Program-made: the position numbers and the translations under genes
Notes under the pieces: generated by a model
What the model was told of the DNA's origin: nothing
What the model saw: the letters and a program-made list of their open reading frames with translations, nothing else
Database searches by the model: none
Shown here: positions 10,622 to 47,452 of the stretch, in pieces
Position numbering within the stretch: position 1 is the first letter of the stretch
Layout of the letters: each line of letters starts with the position of its first letter
NCBI GenBank assembly: GCA_028286685.1
Contig: JAQBRA010000004.1
Span: forward strand, 12,898 to 76,897
DNA: 64,000 nucleotides
DNA from: Candidatus Adlerbacteria bacterium
GTDB lineage: Bacteria > Patescibacteriota > Minisyncoccia > Phycocordibacterales > SBAW01
Direction: 5' to 3'

Positions 10622-10765
10622 CTCTTATTCCTTCCTTGTTTAAGTTTTTGGCCCTCACGCAAAACTCATACAACTCTCTGTACCTGTTGTACGCCTTAAG
10701 CTTTGACGTGTCAATTGCCTGAAGCTTACAGGAAGGGGATAAGTCCCTATTTGTTGGAGCCGAAA

Positions 10766-10792
10766 AAGTAAAAAGCGGGTATCCATTCTGGA
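10766..10792 (-). terminator. terminator of the small membrane protein gene
   Basis: Minus strand GCGGATATCCagaatGGATACCCGC followed by a U-tract. Confidence 0.55.
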
Positions 10793-10823
10793 TATCCGCT
10801 TTGTCGAGCGTGTCTCTTGCTGC

Positions 10824-11024
10824 TTATGCAGTAACCCAGACCGCCCAAGTGAAGAAAAGTGCCGCGACGGATACGAGCAGTCCGGCGCCGAGTAGGATGG
10901 TTTTGATCCTGCAGGAGCGCTGATTTTTAGTCATCCGCTTTCGGCACCGCTTGATGCTGTCTTGCGCCGCGAACTTCGCAGTCATAACCGCCTCAAAGGT
11001 CTTGTCGTTCATGATCGTCTCCAT
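10824..11024 (-). CDS. small membrane protein (66 aa, single transmembrane helix)
   Basis: Has its own promoter and terminator. C-terminal hydrophobic helix ILLGAGLLVSVAALFF. Start chosen at METIMNDK. Confidence 0.5.
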   Translation of the reverse strand: METIMNDKTFEAVMTAKFAAQDSIKRCRKRMTKNQRSCRIKTILLGAGLLVSVAALFFTWAVWVTA

Positions 11025-11084
11025 TGGTTGTGGGAGACGCCTTTCCCTTAGTTTCCCAAACTTTTTTATACTTACTCTATTACC

Positions 11085-11113
11085 AGTATACACCCAGATA
11101 AGCCTTTTGTCAA
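11085..11113 (-). promoter_or_regulatory. sigma70-type promoter for the 10824-11024 gene
   Basis: Minus strand TTGACA-17 nt-TATACT. Confidence 0.55.
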
Positions 11114-11208
11114 GGTCTGTAAAACCCTTTGGTATAGGGCTTTTTTGACGAATACCCACAGCCCTGGCGACTCGTGTGCCAAAGGGGGGAAATGTGGATA
11201 AATACACA

Positions 11209-11259
11209 AGTTAAGTGGGGTAGGGTGGCGTACAATGTCTAGTAGTGGGATGAAGTGGG
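11209..11259 (+). promoter_or_regulatory. mra promoter region with MraZ-operator-like GTGGG direct repeats
   Basis: GTGGGgtagg GTGGCgtaca … GTGGGatgaa GTGGGataga at 10-bp periodicity, overlapping a TACAAT -10 element. Confidence 0.5.
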
Positions 11260-11291
11260 ATAGACCCACCCCACGAACTTCCGAAAAAACC

Positions 11292-11726
11292 ATGCTGATC
11301 GGCGAATACCTCCACACTCTCGACCCCAAGAAGCGCTTGTCGCTTCCTGCCAAATTCCGCAAGGAAGTGGGCCGCAAGGTGGTGATTACGCGCGGGCTCG
11401 ACTCCTGCCTCTTCATGTTTCCGGAGAAGGCGTGGATTAAAATCGCCCAGAAGCTCTCGGACCTGCCGGTAGGGCAGGCCGACACTAGGGGCATGGCCCG
11501 CTTCCTCTTGGCGGGAGCGGTCGAGACCGAGGTAGACGGCGCAGGCCGCATCCTCATCCCGGAGTACCTCAAGGACTTTGCCGAGCTGCGCTCGCGGGTG
11601 GTGTTGGCGGGCGTGTCCGACCGGATCGAGATCTGGAACGAGAAGACCTGGGAGGAGTACAAGCGCAAGATCGAGAAGGGAGCAGACCAGATGGCGCAAG
11701 CGCTGGGTAACATGGGGATCCTGTAA
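11292..11726 (+). CDS. mraZ: transcriptional regulator MraZ
   Basis: MLIGEYLHTLDPKKRLSLPAKFRKE… with duplicated SpoVT/AbrB-like halves (DxxxR). First gene of the dcw cluster. Confidence 0.9.
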   Translation: MLIGEYLHTLDPKKRLSLPAKFRKEVGRKVVITRGLDSCLFMFPEKAWIKIAQKLSDLPVGQADTRGMARFLLAGAVETEVDGAGRILIPEYLKDFAELRSRVVLAGVSDRIEIWNEKTWEEYKRKIEKGADQMAQALGNMGIL

Positions 11727-11729
11727 CAT

Positions 11730-12719
11730 ATGACTACTTTTTCTTTTACGCCCGTTCGTGCATCACACCGCTCCCGTCGAGAGGAGGGCGGCGAGGGGCA
11801 TGAGCGGGCGCAAGAGCGAAAGGATGAGCCGCACGTATCGGTCATGACGGATGAAGTTTTGGCCGCACTCGAAGTAAAGAAGGGCGAGGTGGTGGTGGAC
11901 GGCACTGCAGGTGCGGGCGGCCACAGCGAGGCCTTGGCTCATGCTGCAAAAATAAAACTGATCTCGCTTGATGCCGACCCGGATGCCGTAGCGGCGGTGC
12001 AGAAGCGCCTCGGCAAGAAGGGCGCCGTCATTAACGCCAACTTCGGCGATCTTTTGGCGGTCGCCGAGAAGACCGGCATTACTTTTATAGACAAGGCGCT
12101 GTTTGACCTGGGCTGGAACCGCGGCCAGCTTACGGCCGGCCGCGGGTTTTCCTTCATGTATGACGAGCCGCTCTCGATGAGCTACGGCCCGAAGGCCCGC
12201 TCCGGCTTTACGGCCGCCGAGATGCTCAATACTTTTACCGAAAAGGCCCTGGCCGACATCTTCTTTGGCTACGGCGAGGAGCGCTATGCGCGCCGCATCG
12301 CCAAGGTGATAGTGGAGCGCCGCGAAGAGAAGCCTCTTGCGACCACGCTTGAGCTTGTGGAGCTTATCAAGGACTCGGTGCCCGCGGCCTACCGCCGGGG
12401 GCGGCTCCACCCGGCGACGCGCTCCTTCCAGGGGCTGCGCATTGCGGTCAACGACGAGCTGGGGGCGCTAGAGCAGGGGATTGAGGCAGCTTGGAAACTC
12501 CTAGCCCCGGGCGGACGCATCGCAGTCATTACCTTCCACTCAATTGAGGATCGGGCCGTCAAGAGATTATTTGCGAAGTTCGCCAAGGGAGGGGGCGGGG
12601 AAAAAGGAAGGCTCTTATACAAAAAACCCCTCGTCGCTTCCGCCGCTGAAATTAAACGCAATCCGCCGAGCCGATCCGCCAAGCTTCGCGCAATCGAAAA
12701 AATATGCCCACAAGAATAA
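11730..12719 (+). CDS. rsmH: 16S rRNA (cytosine1402-N4)-methyltransferase RsmH/MraW
   Basis: …HVSVMTDEVLAAL…VVDGTAGAGGHSEAL SAM-binding motif. An N-terminal extension of ~35 aa makes the true start uncertain. Confidence 0.85.
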   Translation: MTTFSFTPVRASHRSRREEGGEGHERAQERKDEPHVSVMTDEVLAALEVKKGEVVVDGTAGAGGHSEALAHAAKIKLISLDADPDAVAAVQKRLGKKGAVINANFGDLLAVAEKTGITFIDKALFDLGWNRGQLTAGRGFSFMYDEPLSMSYGPKARSGFTAAEMLNTFTEKALADIFFGYGEERYARRIAKVIVERREEKPLATTLELVELIKDSVPAAYRRGRLHPATRSFQGLRIAVNDELGALEQGIEAAWKLLAPGGRIAVITFHSIEDRAVKRLFAKFAKGGGGEKGRLLYKKPLVASAAEIKRNPPSRSAKLRAIEKICPQE

Positions 12720-13027
12720 ACCCACTGACGCTCTACCGCCTCTATGTCCGCCGCGTGGTGGCCGCTCTGGGCGCCGCTATCGCAGTCTGCGCGTTCATGT
12801 ACGGATTCTTTCTGCTTGAGGCGGTCTCGCATGCGGCAAGCCAGGCCCAGGCGCGCCGCGAAGTCGGCCAGCTTTCTTCCAAAGTGGGAAAGCTCCAGGC
12901 GCAGTACCTCGCCGCAACCAAGGCTCTTACTCCCGAGCGCGCCCGCGCGATGGGCTTCGTCGAGCCGGCGCACGTCGCTACCGTGTATGCGGACGCGCAT
13001 GCGCTCACGCTCTCGGCTAACCGGTAG
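12704..13027 (+). CDS. ftsL: FtsL-like cell-division protein
   Basis: Single transmembrane helix (VVAALGAAIAVCAFMYGFFLL) plus coiled-coil. Sits between rsmH and ftsI. Confidence 0.5.
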   Translation: MPTRINPLTLYRLYVRRVVAALGAAIAVCAFMYGFFLLEAVSHAASQAQARREVGQLSSKVGKLQAQYLAATKALTPERARAMGFVEPAHVATVYADAHALTLSANR

Positions 13028-13042
13028 TACAATAAGGGAAGT

Positions 13043-14578
13043 ATGTCGTCCCGATTTGTCCTGCGCGTCCGGCTTTTGACCGCGCTTCTGATACTGGTGG
13101 CCCTCGTCATTGTCGGCAAGCTCTACTTTTTGCAGGTGGTGCACGGACAGGACTACGCTCGCCGCGCGGACGCCCAGATTATTGCTACGCACAACCCGCT
13201 GCTTAACCGCGGCGCAATTTACTTTACGGACAAGGACGGCACGCCGATCTTGGCCGCGACCCTGCGCGAGCTGGGCGACGCTTCTACGACTTCCGAAGAC
13301 GGCAATCACCAGCGCTACTATCCGGGCGGTTCCTTGTCGGCCCGGACGCTCGGCTTTGTGGCCTACAACAATGACGACGAGCAGAAGGGACGCTACGGCC
13401 TGGAGCGATATTACGACCCGGTCCTGGGCCGCTCCTCCGATAACCTGTACCGCAACTTCTTCGTCGAGCTCTTCGGCGCGGCGCAGGACGTGCTGAGCGG
13501 CAAAGGCCAGAAAGGCGACCTCGTAACCACTATCGAGCCGTCGGTGCAGGGTGAGCTTGAGCGAACCCTCCTGGAGTACGAGGAGACCTGGCACCCCTCG
13601 CTCTCGGGCGGCATCGTCATGGATCCGCACACGGGCGCCATTGTCGCCATGGCCGTATCGCCGACCTTCGATCTCAACCATTTCAACAAGGAAGACGATC
13701 CGACCATTTACGCCAATCCCATAGCCGAAAACGTCTACGAGCTCGGCTCGATCATGAAGCCGCTTACGGTCGCTGCCGGGCTCGACTCGGGCAGCATTAC
13801 TGAAACTACGACCTATAACGACACCGGCTGCATCACGGTCGACACCAAGAAGATCTGCAACTTCGACGCGGAGGCGCGCGGCGTCATTCCCGTGCAGGAA
13901 ATCCTCAGCCAGTCCCTAAACGTCGGCGCCTCGTTCGTGGCAACCAAGATGGGCCCTGAAATAATGCGCGACTACTTTTTAAACAAGTACAAGTTCAACG
14001 AGGAAACGGGCATCGACCTGCCGGGCGAGGTGCGCGGGCTTACCCAGAATCTCGAGGACGGCCGGGCGGTGGAGTTCGATACGGCGTCCTTCGGCCAGGG
14101 CATTGCCGTAACGCCCATTGAGATGGCGCGGGCGCTGGCGACCCTCGCCAACGGCGGCAAGCTGGTAACGCCGCACTTAGGGGCCGCCATCAAGGAAGAG
14201 AGCGGGATTACCCGCGAGCTGGGCTGGGGCGAGCCCGCACAGGTGCTAAAGCCGCAGACCGCTACTGCCATTAGCCGCATGCTGACCCAGGTGGTCGACA
14301 CGGCGCTCGCCAATGGCGACCTAAAGCTCGAGCGCTACAGCATTGCAGCCAAGACCGGCACGGCCCAGATTGCGGACCCCTCTGGCGGCGGCTACTACAA
14401 GGACCGGTACCTGCACAGCTTCTTCGGGTACTTCCCGAGCTATGACGCCAAGTTCCTGGTATTCCTGTTTGCGGTGGAGCCGCGCGGGGCACCCTTTGCC
14501 TCCCAGACCTGGGCCCCGCCGTTTAAGTCCTTGACCCAGTTTCTGATCAACTACTACAACATCCCGCCGGACCGGTAA
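13043..14578 (+). CDS. ftsI: peptidoglycan D,D-transpeptidase FtsI (PBP3-like)
   Basis: SxxK (GSIMKP), SxN (SQSLNVG) and KTGT (AKTGTAQ) motifs. N-terminal transmembrane anchor. Confidence 0.85.
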   Translation: MSSRFVLRVRLLTALLILVALVIVGKLYFLQVVHGQDYARRADAQIIATHNPLLNRGAIYFTDKDGTPILAATLRELGDASTTSEDGNHQRYYPGGSLSARTLGFVAYNNDDEQKGRYGLERYYDPVLGRSSDNLYRNFFVELFGAAQDVLSGKGQKGDLVTTIEPSVQGELERTLLEYEETWHPSLSGGIVMDPHTGAIVAMAVSPTFDLNHFNKEDDPTIYANPIAENVYELGSIMKPLTVAAGLDSGSITETTTYNDTGCITVDTKKICNFDAEARGVIPVQEILSQSLNVGASFVATKMGPEIMRDYFLNKYKFNEETGIDLPGEVRGLTQNLEDGRAVEFDTASFGQGIAVTPIEMARALATLANGGKLVTPHLGAAIKEESGITRELGWGEPAQVLKPQTATAISRMLTQVVDTALANGDLKLERYSIAAKTGTAQIADPSGGGYYKDRYLHSFFGYFPSYDAKFLVFLFAVEPRGAPFASQTWAPPFKSLTQFLINYYNIPPDR

Positions 14579-14634
14579 CTACCCTGAAAAGCGGGCAGGG
14601 CGGGGTAGGGTAGAATATATAAAACAGAAAAAAC

Positions 14635-15942
14635 ATGCGCACTATTTTCAAATCGATCATCGTTTGGATCCTGCAGATGGAGGCCAAGGCAGTATTGCGC
14701 AAGTATCAGCCAAAGGTGGTTGCTATTACCGGCAGCGTCGGCAAGACCTCGACCAAGGATGCGGTGTACGCCGTGCTTTCTAAGAAATTCCACGTTCGCA
14801 AAAGCGAAAAGAGCTTTAATTCAGAAGTGGGCGTGCCGCTTACGATACTGGGCTTGGGCAACGCCTGGGGCAACCCCTTGCACTGGCTGCAGAACATCAT
14901 CGACGGCCTCTCTCTTATACTGACTACGCACAGCTATCCGGAGTGGCTGGTCTTGGAAGTGGGGGCCGATCGGCCCGGCGACATCAAGTCGCTTTCCTCG
15001 TGGATCAAGGTAGACGTGGCGATTATTACGCGGCTTCCGGAAGTGCCGGTGCATGTGGAGTTCTTTGACTCGGTAGAAGCGGTCATTGAGGAAAAGGCCT
15101 CGCTCATGGACGCGGTGCGTCCTGGAGGCGCGATACTTCTATATGCCGATGACGAGCGCACCAAGAAATTGCAGCAACGCCTGCCGGCGCCCGATGCGCG
15201 CATCGTGCTGTTCGGCTTTAGCGACGAGACCGACGTGTGGGCGAGCAAGTTTGAAGTCGTGCGCGAGGAAGGGAAGGAGTCCTGGCCGATAGGCATGCGG
15301 GCGAATATTTCTGTCGAGGGCGAGTCGGCGCCCGTGCAGATCATCGGTTCTCTGGGCACCCATGCCTTTCTGTCGGCGGTAGCCGCAGCGGCTGCGGGCC
15401 ATGTGCTCGGGGTGAGCCTTCCTGATATTGTCGCGGGGCTCGAGGGTTATGAACCGCCTCCGGGCCGCGTGCGGATATTGCCCGGCATCAAGGATACGCT
15501 GATTCTCGACGATACTTATAACGCCTCGCCGGCGGCGACCATAGCTGCGCTCGATGCGCTCAAGCTGACGGCCCCCAAGGGCCGCGCCATTGCCGTCCTG
15601 GGTGACATGTTGGAACTTGGCCGCGTGTCGGTAGAAGAGCATCGCAAGGTGGGGGCCAAGGCGGCGCAGGTTGCCGATCTTTTGATAGTGGTGGGCGTGC
15701 GGGCGCGCGATATTGCCATGGGGGCACTCGACAATGGCATGAAGGACGAGAATATCTTGCAATTTGAGGACTCTCAAAAGGCCGGTGCCGAGCTCCAGAA
15801 TATGCTTCTGGATCATGACGCCATTTTGGTCAAAGGCTCGCAATCCGTGCGCATGGAGCGCGTGGTCGAGGAAATTATGCAGGAGCCGGAGCGGGCAGGG
15901 GAGCTTTTAGTGAGACAAGACTTAGAGTGGAAAAAGCGCTAG
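14635..15942 (+). CDS. murF: UDP-MurNAc-tripeptide--D-Ala-D-Ala ligase MurF
   Basis: Mur-ligase P-loop VVAITGSVGKTSTKD and C-terminal Mur ligase domain. murE is absent between ftsI and murF. Confidence 0.85.
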   Translation: MRTIFKSIIVWILQMEAKAVLRKYQPKVVAITGSVGKTSTKDAVYAVLSKKFHVRKSEKSFNSEVGVPLTILGLGNAWGNPLHWLQNIIDGLSLILTTHSYPEWLVLEVGADRPGDIKSLSSWIKVDVAIITRLPEVPVHVEFFDSVEAVIEEKASLMDAVRPGGAILLYADDERTKKLQQRLPAPDARIVLFGFSDETDVWASKFEVVREEGKESWPIGMRANISVEGESAPVQIIGSLGTHAFLSAVAAAAAGHVLGVSLPDIVAGLEGYEPPPGRVRILPGIKDTLILDDTYNASPAATIAALDALKLTAPKGRAIAVLGDMLELGRVSVEEHRKVGAKAAQVADLLIVVGVRARDIAMGALDNGMKDENILQFEDSQKAGAELQNMLLDHDAILVKGSQSVRMERVVEEIMQEPERAGELLVRQDLEWKKR

Positions 15943-16003
15943 GTGGGACAAAGCCCTAACGATTTGCTATTATCGGATAAGTAACATGTTCTAAGGGGTA
16001 GAA

Positions 16004-16207
16004 ATGAACCGTGCAAGCGAAAAAGCTATCCGGCGCAGCTGGGAGCATGACCTTAGGAGTCATCCTCTGGGCAGCATCCAAACTGGTCCGAGCAAGGAGG
16101 AGCTCCGAGCGCAGGCAGAAGCGCTTACTGTCGGCGTTACGGTAACGGTCTGCAGGGCCTCGTACAGAAAATCGGACCTCCGTAAACGAGCAGGCGGCTA
16201 TAAATAA
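16004..16207 (+). CDS. hypothetical small basic protein
   Basis: 67 aa. AAGGGG ribosome-binding site upstream. Followed directly by a perfect terminator. Confidence 0.3.
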   Translation: MNRASEKAIRRSWEHDLRSHPLGSIQTGPSKEELRAQAEALTVGVTVTVCRASYRKSDLRKRAGGYK

Positions 16208-16210
16208 GAA

Positions 16211-16240
16211 GATAGCGCGGACACGGTCCGCGCTTTTCTT
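16211..16240 (+). terminator. intrinsic terminator
   Basis: aGCGCGGACacgGTCCGCGCttttctttt. Confidence 0.65.
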
Positions 16241-16320
16241 TTGGCCCAAATTGTCGTACATTGTTCTGGTACGTTCGGTATGGCCTGCGATTAATTAAGT
16301 CGGGTCTAAGGTAGAAATAG

Positions 16321-16392
16321 GGCCCTATCGTCTAATGGTTAGGACAGTTCCCTCTCACGGAACAAATCGGGGTTCGAATCCCCGTAGGGTCA
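16321..16392 (+). tRNA. tRNA-Glu (anticodon CUC)
   Basis: Hand-folded cloverleaf: acceptor GGCCCTA/TAGGGTC (one G-U pair), D-arm with GG, anticodon stem GTTCC/GGAAC, loop CTCTCAC, T-arm CGGGG-TTCGAAT-CCCCG, discriminator A. Overall resemblance to E. coli tRNA-Glu. Confidence 0.85.
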
Positions 16393-16400
16393 CACGATCG

Positions 16401-16428
16401 AAAAACTCCGGCTTTGGCCGGGGTTTTT
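16401..16428 (+). terminator. terminator after tRNA-Glu
   Basis: aaaaaCTCCGGCtttgGCCGGGGttttt. Confidence 0.6.
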
Positions 16429-16526
16429 CGTATCGCCGTGATGCCTGGGAGGCAGATTCGAAAGGCGCAGGCACGACGGTGCCGAGCCGGGGTCGCGAGA
16501 TTTTCTAGCAGGAAAATACTTGTGAC

Positions 16527-16546
16527 CGAATCCCCGTAGGGTCACA
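16527..16546 (+). repeat. 20-nt direct repeat of the tRNA-Glu 3' end (att-like scar)
   Basis: cgaatccccgtagggtcaca is identical to tRNA positions 16375-16394. Followed by hairpin terminators at 16566-16590 and 16704-16740 and a further ggtcacaaaag copy at 16688. Confidence 0.7.
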
Positions 16547-16892
16547 AAAGACACAAACACCTGCCCTGCGGCAGGTTTTGTGCTTTTGTGACAGGCGCAG
16601 CGATGTTTTGCACTGGCAAAACCGCGAGCCGGGGCCGGCAAGCAAAATCGCTGACGAGCGATTTTGACTTGTGGCCAGGCTGACGGGCGGTCACAAAAGA
16701 AAAACCCGGCGCCTTCGTGGCGCCGGGTTCGGTTTTATGCAAATTGCGCCTGCGGCGACGGCACTACGGGCGTAAGCACGACCGACGTAGTCGCTCTCTT
16801 CCCGACTTTTCAGGAAATATAATTTCCGACGGTAAATGAAAAGAGAAAGGCCCGCGCAAATGGTGCGCGGGCCTCATGCTTCTGCGTGCAGA

Positions 16893-17234
16893 CTAGATCA
16901 AATCGATCTGCTCCGCGTTTTCGGTATTGACCAGTGGGAACCGGTCGAGCCGGGCTTGTACCTGCTCGTCGGCAGACTTTACAGGAGGGCCGTCGAGCCC
17001 GAGTCCGGTAAAAGGCTCGATGTCTCGCTCGTTCGCTGCGCCGGTGATGCGCCCTGCGAGCGCGATTGCCGCAGCCACATCTTCAGACGATCGGGCGTAC
17101 GCATCGGAGTTATCGTTCGGAACTCCAAAGCGCCGCCTTGGACGAACCGGGCCTCTCCTTAGATTCTGCCCGAGCCTCCATAGACTATTGCGAAGTTCAG
17201 GATCTTCAATGTCGGTTAACCTTGAGCGTTCCAT
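16893..17234 (-). CDS. hypothetical protein
   Basis: 113-aa ORF with a convincing downstream terminator (16849-16876, AGGCCCGCGCaaatggtGCGCGGGCCT). Confidence 0.4.
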   Translation of the reverse strand: MERSRLTDIEDPELRNSLWRLGQNLRRGPVRPRRRFGVPNDNSDAYARSSEDVAAAIALAGRITGAANERDIEPFTGLGLDGPPVKSADEQVQARLDRFPLVNTENAEQIDLI

Positions 17235-17356
17235 GACTTCCTCGCAGATTCGAGAAATCTCCGAGGGTGACGCGAAACAAACAACCCCTCTGTATTAATT
17301 ATACTCCACTTGACTATGAAAGTCAAGCGATACAAGGGGCGGTTGGGGATAGCTGC

Positions 17357-17809: not shown

Positions 17810-17894
17810 AATTTTATATAAAATGGTATGGCTATAGCTTACCAGATGTGGTACTTTGCGGCTAGGAGAACCTTACACACGAAAGGAGGCGACA

Positions 17895-18632
17895 ATGCAT
17901 GCCCACAGGCTCGGAGATACCGCTTTTATCGTAAGCGATGACGGCGCCGTAAAGCGCACCATCGTAAGCAGCGTCGGCAAAGAGGGGAACATCAGGCTGC
18001 TCGACCGCGCATACGGGCAAGTATGCACGACCTTTGTCGAGGCGCTTGCAGCCGCGACGGCAAAGCTCAAGGAAAAGGAGCGCAAGCTCCAGGACGAGCT
18101 CGGCCCGCTTCAGGCATTGATCGCCCGCCTTTCTTCGCCAGAGTACGAGGAGGAAGTCATGGGCGGCCCGCTCTTGCGCACGAGCACGGCTTCTTTCTTG
18201 GCGGACAGCCCTGAAGTCGTGGAGCTTCCCGCTCCTGAGAGCTATATGGAACCGGGGCAGAAAGTCTTCTGCGCTATCGTCCCCGGCACTCATAACGGAA
18301 TGATTCCCCATTACCGGCCACACCCGTACTTCGTTCTCGAATCCGAAATAGCCGAGACGATCCTCGTCGAGCGGGGCAGGGTAGCCTACCGGATCGACTC
18401 CCACTATCATCCCTCGTCGGGCAGCATCTTTATCGACCCGGAAGAGGCCAAGAAGAAGCTGGTTTCGGTTTTTGAAACGGAAACCGGCGGCACTCTTCCT
18501 TCTGAGAACGTCAGGATAGTTTCCCGGGAACAGGAGAAGCAGGGCTCAAAGAGCTCCTTTGATCGCGTGGCCGGCCAGGTCAGCGGCAGGCCGGCAAACC
18601 CGCTGCTTGAGCCGCTTAGCGACTCAACCTAG
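17895..18632 (+). CDS. hypothetical protein
   Basis: AAAGGAGG ribosome-binding site 6 nt before ATG 17895. The 246-aa product has no recognised motif. Confidence 0.5.
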   Translation: MHAHRLGDTAFIVSDDGAVKRTIVSSVGKEGNIRLLDRAYGQVCTTFVEALAAATAKLKEKERKLQDELGPLQALIARLSSPEYEEEVMGGPLLRTSTASFLADSPEVVELPAPESYMEPGQKVFCAIVPGTHNGMIPHYRPHPYFVLESEIAETILVERGRVAYRIDSHYHPSSGSIFIDPEEAKKKLVSVFETETGGTLPSENVRIVSREQEKQGSKSSFDRVAGQVSGRPANPLLEPLSDST

Positions 18633-42808: not shown

Positions 42809-44110
42809 TTAAAACGATTCGGCCGCGCGAGCAATGCGCTTGAGTGTCTCGTCTTTGCCAACAAGTGCCGCAATGGTGAAGGGGTCAGGAGATTTCTCGC
42901 GGCCCGAGAGCGCCACGCGCAACGGCCACAGCACGGCCCCCCTGCCCTCTTGCTCCGCATACGGCCACACCGCATCTTTTATATGCGCAGCAGTGAAGTC
43001 CTCATCGGCTACCCCCAAGATGATCGCTTGCACTGCCTGCAAGTGCTTTGACGCATCTTCGGCGGCAATCTTTCCCTTATTGAGCAGCAATGCAGGCTCG
43101 CAGGACACGTCGCCTGTGAAGTCATATTCTTTTATAAGGTCAGTAGCCTCAGTGAGCGTCTGCGCGCGCTCCTTAATGAGCGGCACGAGCCGGGCATCGA
43201 ACTCAGACTTACTGAAGTCCTTGAGCCGCGCGCCATACTCCTGGTCGCTCAGGCGCTTGAGATGCTCGTGATTGAACCAGAGGAGCTTTTCGGTGCCAAA
43301 GACGGCGCCTGCCTTGTGTATGCGCTCCAGCGTAAAGAGCTTTACCAGTTCCTCAAGCGTAAACACCTCCTGCTCGCCGCCCGGGTTCCATCCCAAAAGC
43401 GCCAGGTAGTTGATGATTGCCTCGGGGATAAAGCCCTGTGCTCGATAGTCGGTCGCCGACACGGCGCCGTGGCGCTTGGACAGCTTGGATTTGTCGGGGG
43501 CCAAGATAAGCGGGACGTGCGCATACTCCGGCCGCGCAAAGCCGAGCGCCTCGAGTATCAAAATTTGGCGCGGGGTGTTGGAAATATGCTCTTCGCCGCG
43601 GATGACGTGGGTTACGCCCATGTCATGGTCGTCAATGACAACCGCCAGGTGGTACAAGGGCTCGTCGATACTGCGCGCGATAACGAAGTCGCCCAAGTCG
43701 GTCGTGTCAAAGGTAACCTGCTCGCGCACCGCGTCGGCAAAGGTAATGACCGAGTTTGGGTTCTTAAAGCGCACGACCTTCTTGCCCGGATTATTTTCCG
43801 ACTCCTCGGCCTCGTAGGCCATCCCCGCATCCACCAGGCGCGCTACATGGCCCTGGTAGACGCTCAGGCGCTCGGACTGGCGGTATACGGGCGGCGTCTC
43901 GTATGGGATGCCCAGCCAGTGGACCACATCTAAAATGTCCTGCTCAAATTCCGGCTTGCTCCTTTCCTTGTCGGTGTCCTCAAACCGCAAAATCATTTTG
44001 CCCCCGTTGTGCGCGGCAAAAAGGTAGTTAAAAAGCGCCGTGCGCGCGCCGCCGATGTGCAAAAGGCCCGTGGGGCTCGGCGGAAACCGCGTAATGACCG
44101 GCTGTGACAT
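42809..44110 (-). CDS. gltX: glutamyl-tRNA synthetase
   Basis: PSPTGLLHIGGART (HIGH) and KLSKR (KMSKS); 433 aa. Confidence 0.9.
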   Translation of the reverse strand: MSQPVITRFPPSPTGLLHIGGARTALFNYLFAAHNGGKMILRFEDTDKERSKPEFEQDILDVVHWLGIPYETPPVYRQSERLSVYQGHVARLVDAGMAYEAEESENNPGKKVVRFKNPNSVITFADAVREQVTFDTTDLGDFVIARSIDEPLYHLAVVIDDHDMGVTHVIRGEEHISNTPRQILILEALGFARPEYAHVPLILAPDKSKLSKRHGAVSATDYRAQGFIPEAIINYLALLGWNPGGEQEVFTLEELVKLFTLERIHKAGAVFGTEKLLWFNHEHLKRLSDQEYGARLKDFSKSEFDARLVPLIKERAQTLTEATDLIKEYDFTGDVSCEPALLLNKGKIAAEDASKHLQAVQAIILGVADEDFTAAHIKDAVWPYAEQEGRGAVLWPLRVALSGREKSPDPFTIAALVGKDETLKRIARAAESF

Positions 44111-44136: not shown

Positions 44137-45267
44137 TTATTTCTCGTGGCTGAGCCCGATATCGAGGAGCGCGTTGGCGATAAGCTTGGCCGCATCCGGG
44201 CGGCTGAAGCCGCGCGCCGCATTCTGCATCGCGTGCTTTATCTGCTCGCTGCTGAGTATCCGCTCGATTTCCGAAATCAAAAGGCCCGGGGTCAGATTAT
44301 TCTGCTCTATTACCGAGGCTCCCCCGGCGCGCGCGTAGGCAAAGGCATTCTTGGTCTGGTCATGGCTTACGGGTTCGGGTATCGGGACCAGTATCATGGG
44401 CAGGCCCCATGCCGCCGCCTCGAAGATATTCCCCGCTCCGGCGCGCGAAATGATAAGGCTGGCCGATCCCGCTGCCATGCGGGTAGCCAGGTCATTTAAG
44501 TAATCAAATGCCTTGTAGCGCTCATATACCACCGAGTCGGTAATAGCGACGCGCGAGCGGCCCACGACGTCGGTAAAGTTCGCCCGGCCGGTCTGGTGCA
44601 CCACCTGGTACTTCTCCAAGAGGCGCGGCAGCGCATCGAGCACTGCGTCGTTTATGGTCTGGGAGCCCTGGCTGCCGCCGGTGACCAGTATGACCGGCAC
44701 ATCAGGCTTGAGCTTGAGAAACTCCCGGGCTCCCTCGCGCGCGGGCAAAAGGGCCGCCTTGCGCACCGGGTTGCCGGTGTGCGCCACTTTCTCTTTCGGA
44801 AAGTATTCCGCCCCTTCGGCAAAGGCTACGGCGATTTTGACGGCAAACTTGGCCGCCCACTTGTTAACCCGGCCCGGGTCTACGTCGCAGTTGAGTATGA
44901 CGACCGGGATGCGGAAGACGCGCGCCGCAAGCAGCGTCGGAAAGCTGGCGTAGCCGCCGGTCGAAAAGACAACGTCCGGGTAGAGGAAAAACACGCGCAG
45001 CATCGAGCGGACGGTTCCCCATGCGGTCTTGAAGTAATCGAAGAAGTTGAGGATCGAGAAGTAGTTGCGGATCTTTCCGGCCGAGGTGGCGACCCAGGTG
45101 ATGTTGTTGGCGAGCAGCACCTCGCGGTCGTACGGGTCCGGCGCGGCATAGAAAAGCTGCGGCTCGAGCAGCTTGCGCTCGCGCGTCTCGTCGTTAATAG
45201 CCTCTGCCACGGCGACAATGGGGTAAAAGTGCCCGCCCGATCCCCCTCCGGTAAAAAGTATTTTCAT
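44137..45267 (-). CDS. murG: lipid II synthase MurG (GT28)
   Basis: TGGGSGGHFYP G-loop. Adjacent to ftsW and mraY. Confidence 0.9.
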   Translation of the reverse strand: MKILFTGGGSGGHFYPIVAVAEAINDETRERKLLEPQLFYAAPDPYDREVLLANNITWVATSAGKIRNYFSILNFFDYFKTAWGTVRSMLRVFFLYPDVVFSTGGYASFPTLLAARVFRIPVVILNCDVDPGRVNKWAAKFAVKIAVAFAEGAEYFPKEKVAHTGNPVRKAALLPAREGAREFLKLKPDVPVILVTGGSQGSQTINDAVLDALPRLLEKYQVVHQTGRANFTDVVGRSRVAITDSVVYERYKAFDYLNDLATRMAAGSASLIISRAGAGNIFEAAAWGLPMILVPIPEPVSHDQTKNAFAYARAGGASVIEQNNLTPGLLISEIERILSSEQIKHAMQNAARGFSRPDAAKLIANALLDIGLSHEK

Positions 45268-45286
45268 GCCTGTTTAAAATAAGCCC

Positions 45287-46390
45287 TTAGTGCTTCATGT
45301 GCCTCGATACGCTCAATATTATCCCGATTTCGGCCAAAGATATAGCCAGGGCGGTGCCGCCGTGGGAGACGAAGATAAGCGGCAGGCCCGACAACGGGAT
45401 GAGCCCGATAACCGAGGATATGTTCATAAATGACTGCCCGATAATTAGAAGGACGAGGCCAACCACCAAGAGGCCCCCGAACGGGTCAGGCGCCCGCGCC
45501 GCAATGCGCAGGCCAAGCAGGGCCACGGCCGCATACAGGAGTATCAGGACTACGCTGCCCAAGAAGCCAAACTCCTCGGCTGCCACGGCAAAAATTGAGT
45601 CGCCGATAGGCTCCGGCAAGAAGGCGAATTTCTCGATGCTTTGGCCAAAGCCCTTCCCTGCCCATTCTCCCGAGCCAACGGCAATTAAAGACTGCTGTAT
45701 CTGGTAGCCGGCGCCCTGGGGGTCGGAGCCGGGGTTAAGGAATATGGTAAACCGCTCCATTAGATACGGCCGCTGGAAGGCCGCCCCGGCTACGGCAATG
45801 ATGCCGATAAGGACTATAAGCAGTATGTGCCAGACGCGCCCGCCTGCGGCAAAGAGCATGCCCAGGCTCGCCAAAACGATTATGGCCGCGCCGTCGGTAT
45901 CGGGCTGCAGCAGGAGGATCATCGCGGCCGAGCCCACAATAAGCGCCATAGGCAATACGCCGCCCCGCACTGTGTCCACATGCTTGAAGTGCATCGCAAA
46001 CATTGCCGCCAAGAAGGCCACGACCGCGAGCTTTAAGAGTTCGACCGGCTGGAAGGTTATGGGGCCTAACGACAGCCAGCGCGCAGCGCCCTTAAGCTCC
46101 AGGCCGATGCCCGGCACGAAGGTGAGCGCGGTTAAAAACAGCGCGAATCCGAAGAAGTACGGCGTGTAGGGGCGCCATTTGCGATAATCGAGGCGCGAGA
46201 GTATCCACAGTGCGATGCTGCCGCAGACCAGTCCGAGCAAGAGCTGGTTAACGGCTACGGAGCCGAACGTCGCTCCCCCGTCGCGCGCCAAGAGTCCGAG
46301 CGCGGCTGAAGTAAAGATAAGCAGGCCAAAGACCACCAGCGCGGAAAGCACCAATAAAAAAGGCGTATCGATTGATTTGCGCGCTTGCAC
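45287..46390 (-). CDS. ftsW: SEDS-family peptidoglycan glycosyltransferase FtsW
   Basis: Ten-transmembrane SEDS topology. Synteny mraY-ftsW-murG. Confidence 0.85.
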   Translation of the reverse strand: MQARKSIDTPFLLVLSALVVFGLLIFTSAALGLLARDGGATFGSVAVNQLLLGLVCGSIALWILSRLDYRKWRPYTPYFFGFALFLTALTFVPGIGLELKGAARWLSLGPITFQPVELLKLAVVAFLAAMFAMHFKHVDTVRGGVLPMALIVGSAAMILLLQPDTDGAAIIVLASLGMLFAAGGRVWHILLIVLIGIIAVAGAAFQRPYLMERFTIFLNPGSDPQGAGYQIQQSLIAVGSGEWAGKGFGQSIEKFAFLPEPIGDSIFAVAAEEFGFLGSVVLILLYAAVALLGLRIAARAPDPFGGLLVVGLVLLIIGQSFMNISSVIGLIPLSGLPLIFVSHGGTALAISLAEIGIILSVSRHMKH

Positions 46391-46399
46391 TTCCTTTTA

Positions 46400-47452
46400 T
46401 TATACCAGCGCTAAAGCGAGGCCTGCTATTGCAGCCATAACGCTCACGATCCAGTAGCGCATCGTGACCTTATACGCGGGCCAGCCTATCGCCTCAAAGT
46501 GATGATGCAGTGGCGCAATGCGGAAAATCTTGCGACCCAGTACTTTCTTGCCGAATATTTGGATGATGTTCGATGCGACCGTCGCAACCAAAGGCAGTGC
46601 GATAAGCGGCAAAACCGAGACGCCCTTGCCGCCGCCCTTAACGTCGGTCAAAAATGCCACCACTACCAGAGCAATGGTCAGCGCCATGCTGCCGGTTTCT
46701 GAAAGGTAAAAGCGCGCCGGCGGGATATTGAACCAGAGGAATGCCAAGAGGCCGCCAGCCAGAGCCGCGCACAGCGCCGCGATGTCGAACTGGTTCTGGA
46801 AGAACGCGATGCCCGCATAGGCCGAGAAAATCGTGGCAAAGATGCCTCCGGCCAGTCCGTCGAGCCCGTCTATGACGCCGCCTGCATATATAAAGAGCGT
46901 AACCAGGACAAACAGCGGGATAAAGAGGATGCCCAGCTCGAGCGGCCCCGGCATAAACGGTACCGTAACGGAGGAGACGTCGAGTTTGTCGTAAAACCAC
47001 CAGGCGCACAGGACAGCGACGGTCGCCACGAACATAAGGCGCACGCGCAGCCGCAGGCCCTGGCGGCCCGATACTTCAAACAGGTCGTCCGCAAAGCCAA
47101 CCAGTGCGCCCATTGCCATGGCGGCCAGAGGCACCCAGGTCTGCGCGCGGCTGATAAACGCGAGCGTGCCGAATGCGTCGGGGAATATGCGCGCCAAGAG
47201 CGAGAGCAAGTCCGCAGTTAAAAGGACGCTTGCCCATACCACAATGCCGCCGAAGCGCGGCGTGCCGACCTCTTTTAGCTCATGGAGGCGGTTAAACTCG
47301 GTGGCCGCGGTGCCGTCCATGGCAATCTTGCCGCCTTTGGGCTTCCACATCTTGTACTTGTACAGGTAGTGGGCCAGAAACGGCGTAATGAGCACTCCTA
47401 TCAGAAAGGCCAAGGTGGCGGGCACGAATATGCGCATTACCTCGAAGGTCAT
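46400..47452 (-). CDS. mraY: phospho-MurNAc-pentapeptide translocase MraY
   Basis: 350 aa polytopic membrane protein with MraY DD…D motifs. Confidence 0.9.
   Translation of the reverse strand: MTFEVMRIFVPATLAFLIGVLITPFLAHYLYKYKMWKPKGGKIAMDGTAATEFNRLHELKEVGTPRFGGIVVWASVLLTADLLSLLARIFPDAFGTLAFISRAQTWVPLAAMAMGALVGFADDLFEVSGRQGLRLRVRLMFVATVAVLCAWWFYDKLDVSSVTVPFMPGPLELGILFIPLFVLVTLFIYAGGVIDGLDGLAGGIFATIFSAYAGIAFFQNQFDIAALCAALAGGLLAFLWFNIPPARFYLSETGSMALTIALVVVAFLTDVKGGGKGVSVLPLIALPLVATVASNIIQIFGKKVLGRKIFRIAPLHHHFEAIGWPAYKVTMRYWIVSVMAAIAGLALALV

Follow-up and report, generated by a model that had tools for sequence, protein, structure and literature searches.

Repeats of the TLR type (tRNA-linked repeats) have been known from E. 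coli since 1978, and most of them have no assigned function (PMC8144298, citing Egan & Landy 1978; Rudd 1999). By definition, the 3'-terminal 18-19 bp of such an element equal those at the 3' terminus of the upstream tRNA or rRNA gene, and E. coli carries 22 of these elements at 10 loci, with one to five per locus (PMC8144298). They include RtT/RttR (RF00391, tyrT-tyrV) as well as RrA, RrB and RrF, which lie after 5S rRNA; the RrB repeat has been proposed to be a processing signal for RNase E (PMC8144298). In the E. coli genome (NC_000913), tyrV is followed by three units of 178 nt, each of which ends in AATCCTTCCCCCACCACCA (i.e. the 19 nt with which tRNA-Tyr ends, counted from inside the T loop), and the annotated RttR terminates precisely at the CCA of the tRNA-Tyr copy. 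Within the RtT unit, an internal antisense stretch (GGGGAAGGAU) is predicted to fold onto AUCCUUCCCC. No report of TLRs outside the Enterobacterales was found in the literature consulted, which was limited to open-access and preprint texts.

The locus described here lies in a 64-kb stretch of DNA (the window), 3' of a tRNA-Glu(CTC) gene whose sequence is 100% identical in the retrieved loci L001, L094, L098, L128, L186 and L188. The original prediction, which was made from the sequence of the window, took the duplicated tRNA-Glu 3' end found there for a possible scar of integrase-mediated insertion or excision of an island, and pointed out that the dcw cluster is broken at this point. It is most likely, however, that the duplicated end is the closing strand of hairpin modules and not the scar of a lost island. 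The region 16375-16740 as a whole is probably a tandem pair of TLR-type structured RNA modules that follow the tRNA-Glu(CTC) gene, with a hairpin at the end (Table 1).

Table 1. Features of the tRNA-Glu(CTC) locus and of the array behind it, in window coordinates
Feature	Position	Strand	Basis
tRNA-Glu(CTC), intact, no encoded CCA	16321-16392/3	+	ARAGORN; Rfam RF00005, 63.6 bits
Core copy 1: tRNA 3' end, reaching from C56 in the T loop as far as the discriminator, and 2 nt of trailer	16375-16394	+	exact 20-mer
Hairpin A: terminator-like stem-loop with U tract	16395-16436	+	inverted repeat I2; folded
Degenerate copy, in antisense, of the tRNA 3' end (GTGATGCCTGGGAGGCAGATTCGAA), predicted 5' strand of the m1 closing helix	16438-16462	+	
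Module m1: P1 16464-16488, GG junction, P2 16491-16527	16464-16527	+	CM R1; nhmmer
Core copy 2: tRNA 3' end repeated perfectly over 20 nt, predicted 3' strand of the m1 closing helix	16527-16546	+	
Hairpin B: long terminator-like stem-loop	16541-16592	+	I6 (100%, 10 nt); I12; terminator scan
Module m2: P1 16594-16630, GG junction, P2 16633-16676 (GACG loop)	16594-16676	+	CM R1
Third, partial copy (GGTCACAAAAGA), predicted 3' strand of the m2 closing helix, pairing with 16583-16592	16689-16700	+	D5; I3
Hairpin C: bidirectional terminator-like hairpin at the array end	16703-16729	both	terminator scan, 11-12 pairs; I4

As far as the letters themselves are concerned, the original prediction was accurate. 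The repeated block, CGAATCCCCGTAGGGTCACA, consists of the last 18 nt of tRNA-Glu plus 2 nt of trailer; it begins inside the T loop (between TT and CGAAT) and extends to the tRNA 3' end. It has two exact occurrences in the window, at 16375-16394 and 16527-16546 (152 nt from start to start, 132 bp in between), and no third one even when three mismatches are tolerated; under this tolerance 100 shuffles likewise gave 0 matches. The further copy that had been placed some 150 bp on is likewise present: GGTCACAAAAG, followed by an A, recurs 149 nt past core copy 2, and an inverted copy with one mismatch is found at 16583-16593. The three terminator-like hairpins are there as well (16399-16430, 16556-16579 and 16703-16729), and the absence of a credible coding sequence is borne out, there being no ORF of more than 83 aa within 16335-16742. 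What had been missed are four further hairpins (P1 and P2 of both m1 and m2) and a periodicity of ~150 nt, which appears in the spacings of four repeat families (152, 142, 149 and 149). The GC content of the region is 0.53-0.59, like that of its surroundings, so that no anomaly in composition is seen. Terminator-like hairpins are ten in number in 15800-17300 versus 1.8 expected in a consensus scan; candidate rho-independent terminators, as judged by the match to the consensus, lie on the + strand at 16559-16576 and 16703-16729, and on the - strand at 16421-16408.

When the relatives are read side by side, a common repeat unit can be recognised. First comes the tRNA 3' end itself or its copy, then a long hairpin that has a U tract and in many cases a CUGC loop, then an antisense copy of the tRNA 3' end (full or residual), and then helix P1; a conserved GAG-SC-GG junction separates P1 from P2, which mostly has a GACG loop and the 3' strand …TTGTGACC, and after P2 comes the next sense copy. 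The window array contains two such units in tandem, of which unit 1 comprises hairpin A, the antisense remnant, m1 and core copy 2, and unit 2 comprises hairpin B, m2 and the partial copy, after which hairpin C closes the array. The arms of hairpin A (16399-16412 and 16417-16430) are 93% complementary, and the hairpin has a homologue in L188, L098, L201 and L171. The antisense stretch behind it gave inverted blastn matches (w16462-16373/16385) with 72-79% identity, and RNAfold pairs it with core copy 2; its equivalent is close to perfect in L201, L116 and L193, and for m1 in the window it is degenerate. In L201 the sense copy seems to have diverged from the tRNA, with compensating change in the antisense strand. 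Hairpin B has the outer arms GTCACAAAAG and CTTTTGTGAC; its inner arms lie around 16556-16579, and the loop, at 16566-16569, reads CTGC. The same CTGC-loop hairpin comes after the tRNA in L176, L178, L128, L153, L171 and L170. The arrays of L098, L128, L178, L186 and L201 are closed, as is that of the window, by AAAAGAAAAG and a GC-rich hairpin. Neither ARAGORN nor Rfam reported a further tRNA or pseudo-tRNA in the array.

Both modules belong to a conserved family. Across the 64 kb, a profile HMM built on 14 modules (nhmmer) returned the m1 and m2 sites alone, and a covariance model of P1 and P2 (CM R1) likewise matched only these two, with 37.3 bits (E ~1e-4; nhmmer E 9e-10) for m1 and 96.4 bits (E 5e-16) for m2. 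Module m1, like the first unit of the window, has 93% identity to its counterpart in L188, and m2 has 81% identity to the unit that comes first in L186. In sequence sets from relatives (1.28 Mb, 0.60 Mb and 0.32 Mb), CM R1 gave 20-22 matches on ~17-18 contigs, every one of which lies 3' of a tRNA and on the same strand as that tRNA. A dispersed repeat of the REP or MITE type was considered and rejected, since searches with the 20-mer, the 11-mer, nhmmer and the covariance model all came back empty elsewhere in the 64 kb. A metagenome scan by the tRNA-end 18-mer gave ~120 contigs, ~20 of them with the same or a near-identical tRNA; one Logan contig is identical to window positions 10635-16350 and stops inside the tRNA.

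The helices P1 and P2 are kept by compensatory change. In a MAFFT alignment (A2), 87% of the cells are paired versus 68% in shuffles, two-sided changes occur in 26 of the 33 pairs (a number reached by 0 of 500 shuffles), and the covariation score is 0.447, compared to 0.08-0.14 with slid partners. An alignment made with the covariance model (A3), which is biased towards the model structure, has 92% of cells paired, covariation in 27 of 32 pairs and a score of 0.526 versus 0.05-0.09 with slid partners. The outer pair of P1 illustrates this: GCC…GAGGC and GGC…GAGCC are swapped consistently in 17 of 18 modules. Read on the tRNA-sense strand, the paired cells contain 31 G-U/U-G against 11 A-C/C-A, an excess with p ~0.002 by normal approximation over rows that are related and non-independent. 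Module lengths range from 62 to 146 nt and differ by non-multiples of three, which argues against a coding function, and the number of units among relatives varies from zero to three. The region 16375-16740 is made up of conserved structured modules and not of random scar DNA.

The arrangement is not confined to tRNA-Glu either. In other Patescibacteria the module architecture is also found after tRNA-Tyr, tRNA-Val and tRNA-Ser, and in each case it carries the respective tRNA's own 3' end. In L007, tRNA-Tyr(GTA) is followed, in this order, by a CUGC-loop hairpin, GAGGGATTTGAA (antisense to the T arm), P1, GAGGCAGGG, P2 and CAAATCCCTCCCTGCCCACA, the last of which matches the tRNA-Tyr 3' end in 20 of 20 positions and starts at the same position of the T loop. 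Corresponding arrangements are present after tRNA-Val(GAC) in L193 and after tRNA-Ser(CGA) in L120, where the copy again matches 20/20. Even within tRNA-Glu the copies follow the gene: tRNA-Glu variants that differ in sequence carry copies with the matching differences (L003, L010, L017, L112, L116 and L130). Among the 503 tRNAs in the retrieved loci, partial 3'-end copies starting in the T loop were seen downstream only, the upstream matches being T-arm matches to neighbouring tRNAs or duplicates of whole tRNAs. The original prediction had allowed that the repeats might instead belong to a conserved structured RNA shared by distant relatives, and with modules after several tRNAs this is largely what was found. 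Carriage of the modules on phages was rejected: the tRNA-end 18-mer matched only phage tRNA genes in IMG/VR (42-60 of 72 positions identical), and none of 52 viral loci retrieved with two module motifs gave a covariance-model match below E 0.3.

Set beside the E. coli TLRs, the window array shares their position, with m1 and m2 located 72-284 nt after tRNA-Glu on the same strand, and their identity to the tRNA 3' end, which is complete in unit 1 (20/20 nt) and limited to 11-12 nt in unit 2; core copy 2 is the hallmark of a tRNA-linked repeat. The number of units also falls within the range of one to five in tandem, the window having two with a period of ~150 nt. Putative co-transcription and processing are touched on here by the G-U strand bias and the predicted fold energies. 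Both groups further have a copy of ~19-20 nt that starts in the T loop, an antisense stretch able to pair with this copy, and terminator-like hairpins between the units. The differences are in the details, i.e. a unit of ~150 nt versus 178 nt in E. coli, a core of the form P1-GG-P2 with GACG and CUGC loops, and a copy that lacks CCA because the tRNA gene itself encodes none (unlike in E. coli). In contrast to the E. coli TLRs, moreover, the Patescibacteria family extends over at least four tRNA species, and its antisense copy may span the whole acceptor/T strand, split by the conserved CUGC hairpin. The Rfam model of RtT (gathering threshold 45 bits) had no match at E<=10 in window positions 15800-17200 and none at E<=0.05 in L116, L007, L193 and L120, whereas the positive control, the E. 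coli locus L210, gave four matches of 133-137 bits. The likeness is therefore one of architecture and not of homology, and on these sequence comparisons the Patescibacteria modules are a new family that follows the TLR principle while being unrelated in sequence to the E. coli TLRs.

Other known elements fit less closely. Of the 4227 Rfam families, tRNA alone matched, both in the window region (E<=10) and in ten related loci; matches to Leu_leader, rsmX and similar families stayed below threshold and were driven by the terminator hairpins. In tRNA-like signals by which a neighbouring RNA is released (mascRNA/MALAT1) and in 3' external transcribed spacers from tRNA operons, e.g. 3'ETS-leuZ (PMC8144298), the ends of a non-tRNA product are defined by tRNA-maturation enzymes, which by analogy may also be the case here; the mimic in the window, however, is limited to the acceptor/T-stem strand pair and is no cloverleaf, and the Rfam mascRNA model matches only the real tRNA in the window. 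Analogies with the hammerhead, the K-turn, the retroviral primer-binding site, integron attC and the hairpin attP of CTX phage were discarded for misfits in topology or complementarity, in that the antisense copy matches the gene trailer and not a CCA end, and no cargo lies between the sites.

Folding predictions agree with the anatomy given above. For 16393-16546, RNAfold predicts a structure of -80.8 kcal/mol (z -6.1, MFE frequency 0.43) in which the 20-nt copy forms a helix with the antisense remnant and encloses P1 and P2, and for 16545-16740 one of -105.2 kcal/mol (z -7.95) in which GUCACAAAAG pairs with CUUUUGUGAC and encloses the second P1 and P2. Folded as a whole, the region is 19 kcal/mol more stable on the + strand (-219.9 versus -200.9 kcal/mol). 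Owing to the palindromic design both strands fold well (z -11.1 and -12.4), and going by these predictions a role as a hairpin or cruciform at the DNA level is conceivable too.

By analogy with rrA, rrB and rrF of E. coli, the modules would be transcribed together with the tRNA through a leaky hairpin A or B, although both hairpins resemble intrinsic terminators and could halt transcription before the modules are reached. In the transcript, the sense copy and the antisense stretch would rebuild a helix that resembles the acceptor/T stem with the 3' flank of the tRNA, and the enzymes responsible for 3' maturation of tRNA-Glu would also cut out a stable RNA of ~130-150 nt, for which a protein-binding small RNA, with a level coupled to transcription of the tRNA, is the working guess. 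The number and mix of units would change by recombination between the 20-nt cores, which fits the mosaic nature of the arrays (unit 1 resembling L188, unit 2 resembling L186); the window array would then be an L188-type unit joined to an L186-type unit. In L188, the closest relative, the sense copy after m1 is degenerate, whereas that of the window is perfect, and a recent exchange of cores may account for this at least as well as selection does.

The alternative that the repeats are remnants of att sites holds that an element with its own tRNA-Glu 3' end inserted at the T loop and displaced the native end to 16527, after which it was mostly deleted; or else that it is a miniature, non-autonomous element that was mobilised in trans, in the manner of a CIME. 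In either case the modules would have been brought along by the element. CIMEs are cis-mobilisable elements that have kept their att sites and carry no recombination genes. With att scars and CIMEs the window indeed has in common direct repeats which cover a tRNA 3' end and begin in the T loop (16375-16394 being equal to 16527-16546), the lack of an integrase between them and a variable locus. The identity block extends between the T loop and the end of the tRNA, with its boundary at the central CG of the palindrome TTCGAA, which is reminiscent of the large serine recombinases of the phiC31/Bxb1 type; to the left of this CG, however, the sequence (…CTTGTGAC) lacks the symmetry with the right arm that an att half-site would have. 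In L186, L176, L178 and L165 an intact tRNA is directly followed by the type of unit (hairpin B and m2) that is found after core copy 2 in the window, so that the first 152-bp unit looks like an insertion, whereas in L188 and L094, the closest relatives, that place is taken by a unit of the hairpin-A/m1 type, which means that either unit may be the native one. Relatives do integrate elements here: a large serine recombinase (Resolvase, Recombinase and Zn-ribbon domains) adjoins the 3' end of tRNA-Glu(CTC) in L209 and L118, remnants of a recombinase gene are present in L149 and L208 (followed in L149 by a Gabija-like OLD-ATPase/UvrD pair, i.e. an island with defence genes), and in L043 direct 41-nt repeats of the tRNA end flank an insert of 1.04 kb. 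The locus is, moreover, a hotspot of rearrangement, the tRNA block being inverted between close relatives. In the window itself, none of the 58 ORFs (>=150 aa) encodes a Phage_integrase, Resolvase or Recombinase domain, i.e. there is neither a tyrosine nor a serine recombinase. The 132 bp between the repeats hold no remnant of an integrase or of island genes, do not stand out in composition, and belong with the supposedly native unit to one conserved family that covaries; the structured module occupies this position in many relatives that lack an island and is present even where a second repeat is lacking, and it occurs after four tRNA species with matching ends, which the specificity of a single integrase cannot explain. 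None of the viral contigs searched carries a module, and the tRNA at the serine-recombinase loci encodes CCA and has no module after it, unlike that of the window. An integrase-mediated scar is favoured by the extent of the repeat from the T loop, the seemingly empty sites and the recombinases of relatives, but given the conserved module, the missing recombinase and the unchanged composition, an origin of the window array from att sites is rather unlikely.

Quite improbable is a second alternative, according to which the array has no function as RNA and is a by-product at the DNA level, arising when a terminator hairpin is extended by template switching and its units are duplicated by slippage or unequal crossing-over, and persisting neutrally or as a selfish tandem repeat. 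Long, near-perfect palindromes centred on the post-tRNA hairpin in L193, L201 and L116, the variable number of units (zero to three) and the equal folding of both strands in terms of z-score are as this would have it. Such a by-product does not account for the 27 of 32 pairs in P1 and P2 that were kept by compensation across lineages with only ~40-60% Mur ligase identity, nor for the conserved GACG and CUGC loops and GAG..GG junction, nor for the fact that G-U outnumbers A-C threefold on one of the strands. That the repeats arose by chance, in a GC-rich intergenic region with ordinary terminators, has next to no likelihood: the 11-mer GGTCACAAAAG taken alone is weakly significant (three or more matches in 5 of 100 shuffles), but the expectation for the 20-mer is 0.00 even with three mismatches, and the arrangement recurs in dozens of independent contigs. 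TLR-type modules remain the preferred reading.

The break in the dcw cluster is real, in that the run of dcw genes stops at the Mur ligase, but it is not the work of an island. The array is flanked by genes for a PBP transpeptidase and a Mur ligase (14635-15942), and the flanking Mur ligase, yqeY-like gene and rmuC are syntenic in relatives. The relatives of the Mur ligase are all from Patescibacteria, with 83% identity in L001 and at most 49% in the rest. In 18 of the 36 relatives scanned, tRNA-Glu(CTC) lies 3' of the Mur ligase and shares its strand, mostly at a distance of a few hundred bases or less; Mur ligase identity to the window goes down to 33-49% in these relatives. Within 10 kb after the Mur ligase, none of these relatives has other dcw genes except L033 (ftsW, murG); rmuC lies a few kb further on in L003 and L006, and likewise in the window, where mraY-ftsW-murG are found at 47.4-44.1 kb on the opposite strand. 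Because the junction of Mur ligase and tRNA-Glu is conserved across Patescibacteria, at Mur ligase identities as low as 40%, the break is ancient; judging by gene order it is ancestral to a large clade and not the trace of a recent island. In L001, L094, L098, L153, L188 and L201, which are the closest relatives, the block of tRNA and array is inverted as seen from the Mur ligase and yqeY; in more distant ones it has the orientation of the window. Terminator-like inverted repeats at 16228-16243 and 16694-16709 (88%) are candidate breakpoints for an inversion.

A more far-reaching interpretation, which is unlikely as it stands, is that the modules are undescribed and widespread tRNA-templated RNAs of Patescibacteria, i.e. 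mimics of a tRNA minihelix that recruit the maturation machinery and whose copies are kept matched by recombination. The modules could then carry the sense and antisense acceptor/T-arm strand of the neighbouring tRNA, whatever its identity, and the product could be a regulator of, or decoy for, enzymes or toxins that recognise the acceptor ends of tRNAs; alternatively, the module DNA could be a decoy or insulator att site against the serine-recombinase elements targeting this tRNA. If true, this would provide a lead on the function of the TLRs of E. coli.

For annotation, the TLR-type reading is a warning that finding a tRNA 3' end in a short direct repeat does not by itself point to an island, integrated or excised. 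Since relatives integrate serine-recombinase elements at the very same tRNA, the locus is also a natural system for the interplay between repeats and integrases. Finally, the existence of an unrelated family, with strong compensatory evolution, after at least four tRNAs and in very small genomes, argues that the TLR principle (a structured RNA with a copy of the upstream tRNA's 3' end as its closing strand) is recurrent as well as functional, and not an accident of E. coli.

All relatives compared carry tRNA-Glu, about 90 nt of its upstream sequence and the repeat array as a block, with the Mur ligase on one side and the yqeY-like gene on the other, and the orientation of this block varies among them. 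When the region in the window was set against L001 (3673-5476), L094, L098, L153, L188, L201, L165 and L176, the block turned out to be inverted relative to the window in the closest relatives (RmuC identity up to 94%), and the orientation of the window is common to more distant relatives. In the window, terminator-like inverted repeats (88%) flank the block. An independent short-read contig (L263; Logan SRR13312974_46477), which is identical to window 10635-16350, ends within the tRNA-Glu gene, at 16350, which suggests a branch of the assembly graph at that position, due either to strain variation or to a tRNA common to several species.

On a larger scale, mraY, ftsW and murG are found 28 kb away from mraW, ftsI and the Mur ligase and on the opposite strand, adjoined by the gene for glutamyl-tRNA synthetase. 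The canonical dcw order would be restored by an inversion of about 31.5 kb (15.95-47.45 kb).

In the predicted minimum-energy fold of the whole region, window 16321-16470 does not form the cloverleaf of tRNA-Glu; by way of hairpin A, the terminator-like stem-loop behind the tRNA, the T arm and the 3' strand of the acceptor are paired with the antisense stretch downstream. Judging from this fold, the antisense copy has two possible partners, i.e. tRNA-Glu itself or the sense copy. Modules of the same architecture occur in other Patescibacteria downstream of tRNA-Tyr (L007), tRNA-Val (L193), tRNA-Ser (L120) and divergent tRNA-Glu genes (L116, L010), and include the end of the cognate tRNA both as a sense and as an antisense copy. 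A conserved hairpin, whose loop is A-CUGC-U and whose stem covaries, interrupts the antisense copy there, between its acceptor part and its T-arm part. The repeats of L020, in which tRNA-Glu is followed three times by GCTACC (the final 6 nt of this tRNA) and a hairpin, in tandem units of ~60-90 nt, are a distinct, shorter type of tRNA-linked repeat.

Large serine recombinase genes terminate at the 3' end of tRNA-Glu(CTC) in two relatives (L209 and L118), and at both loci the tRNA is closed by an encoded CCA. L209 also contains a LexA-like repressor-type ORF. In L149 and L208 the recombinase is reduced to a C-terminal remnant, which in L149 is followed by a Gabija-like pair (OLD-family ATPase and UvrD helicase). 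The 1.04-kb insert of L043 lies between 41-nt direct repeats (the tRNA-Glu 3' end plus trailer) and contains a degenerate sequence resembling a second tRNA-Glu, along with a small lipoprotein-like ORF, and no recombinase.

Coordinates of the features in the window and in related loci
Feature	Sequence	Position	Remark
tRNA-Glu block	window	16214-16740	
Flanking inverted repeats	window	16228-16243 / 16694-16709	
Glutamyl-tRNA synthetase	window	42809-44110	
mraY, ftsW, murG	window	44137-47452	- strand
Same-architecture module	L007	5262-5530	
Same-architecture module	L193	8792-9050	reverse strand
Same-architecture module	L120	5570-5806	oriented
Same-architecture module	L116	4793-5081	
Same-architecture module	L010	11414-11790	
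Shorter repeats	L020	4077-4330	
Large serine recombinase	L209	1535-3199	Resolvase+Recombinase+Zn_ribbon_recom; strand with tRNA +
Large serine recombinase	L118	638-2122	Resolvase+Recombinase+Zn_ribbon_recom; strand with tRNA +
Recombinase remnant region	L149	7628-11628	
Insert and flanking direct repeats	L043	11605-12745	
Small ORFs	window	15943-16320, 16740-17350	stretches around block; ORFs of 67 aa and 113 aa
Pilin-like gene	L001		near block
Repeat protein	L098		315 aa; near block
ORF	L186		460 aa; near block
Glycosylase-like ORF	L165, L178		near block
ORF	window	17856-18632	258 aa

An ORF of 258 aa that matches no Pfam family lies between the yqeY-like gene and rmuC in the window; L001, the closest genome, lacks it and has the two genes side by side. 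The small ORFs beside the tRNA block vary from relative to relative (equivalents in L001, L094, L098, L165, L178 and L186), and the intergenic zone around the block is a small-scale hotspot of gene content.
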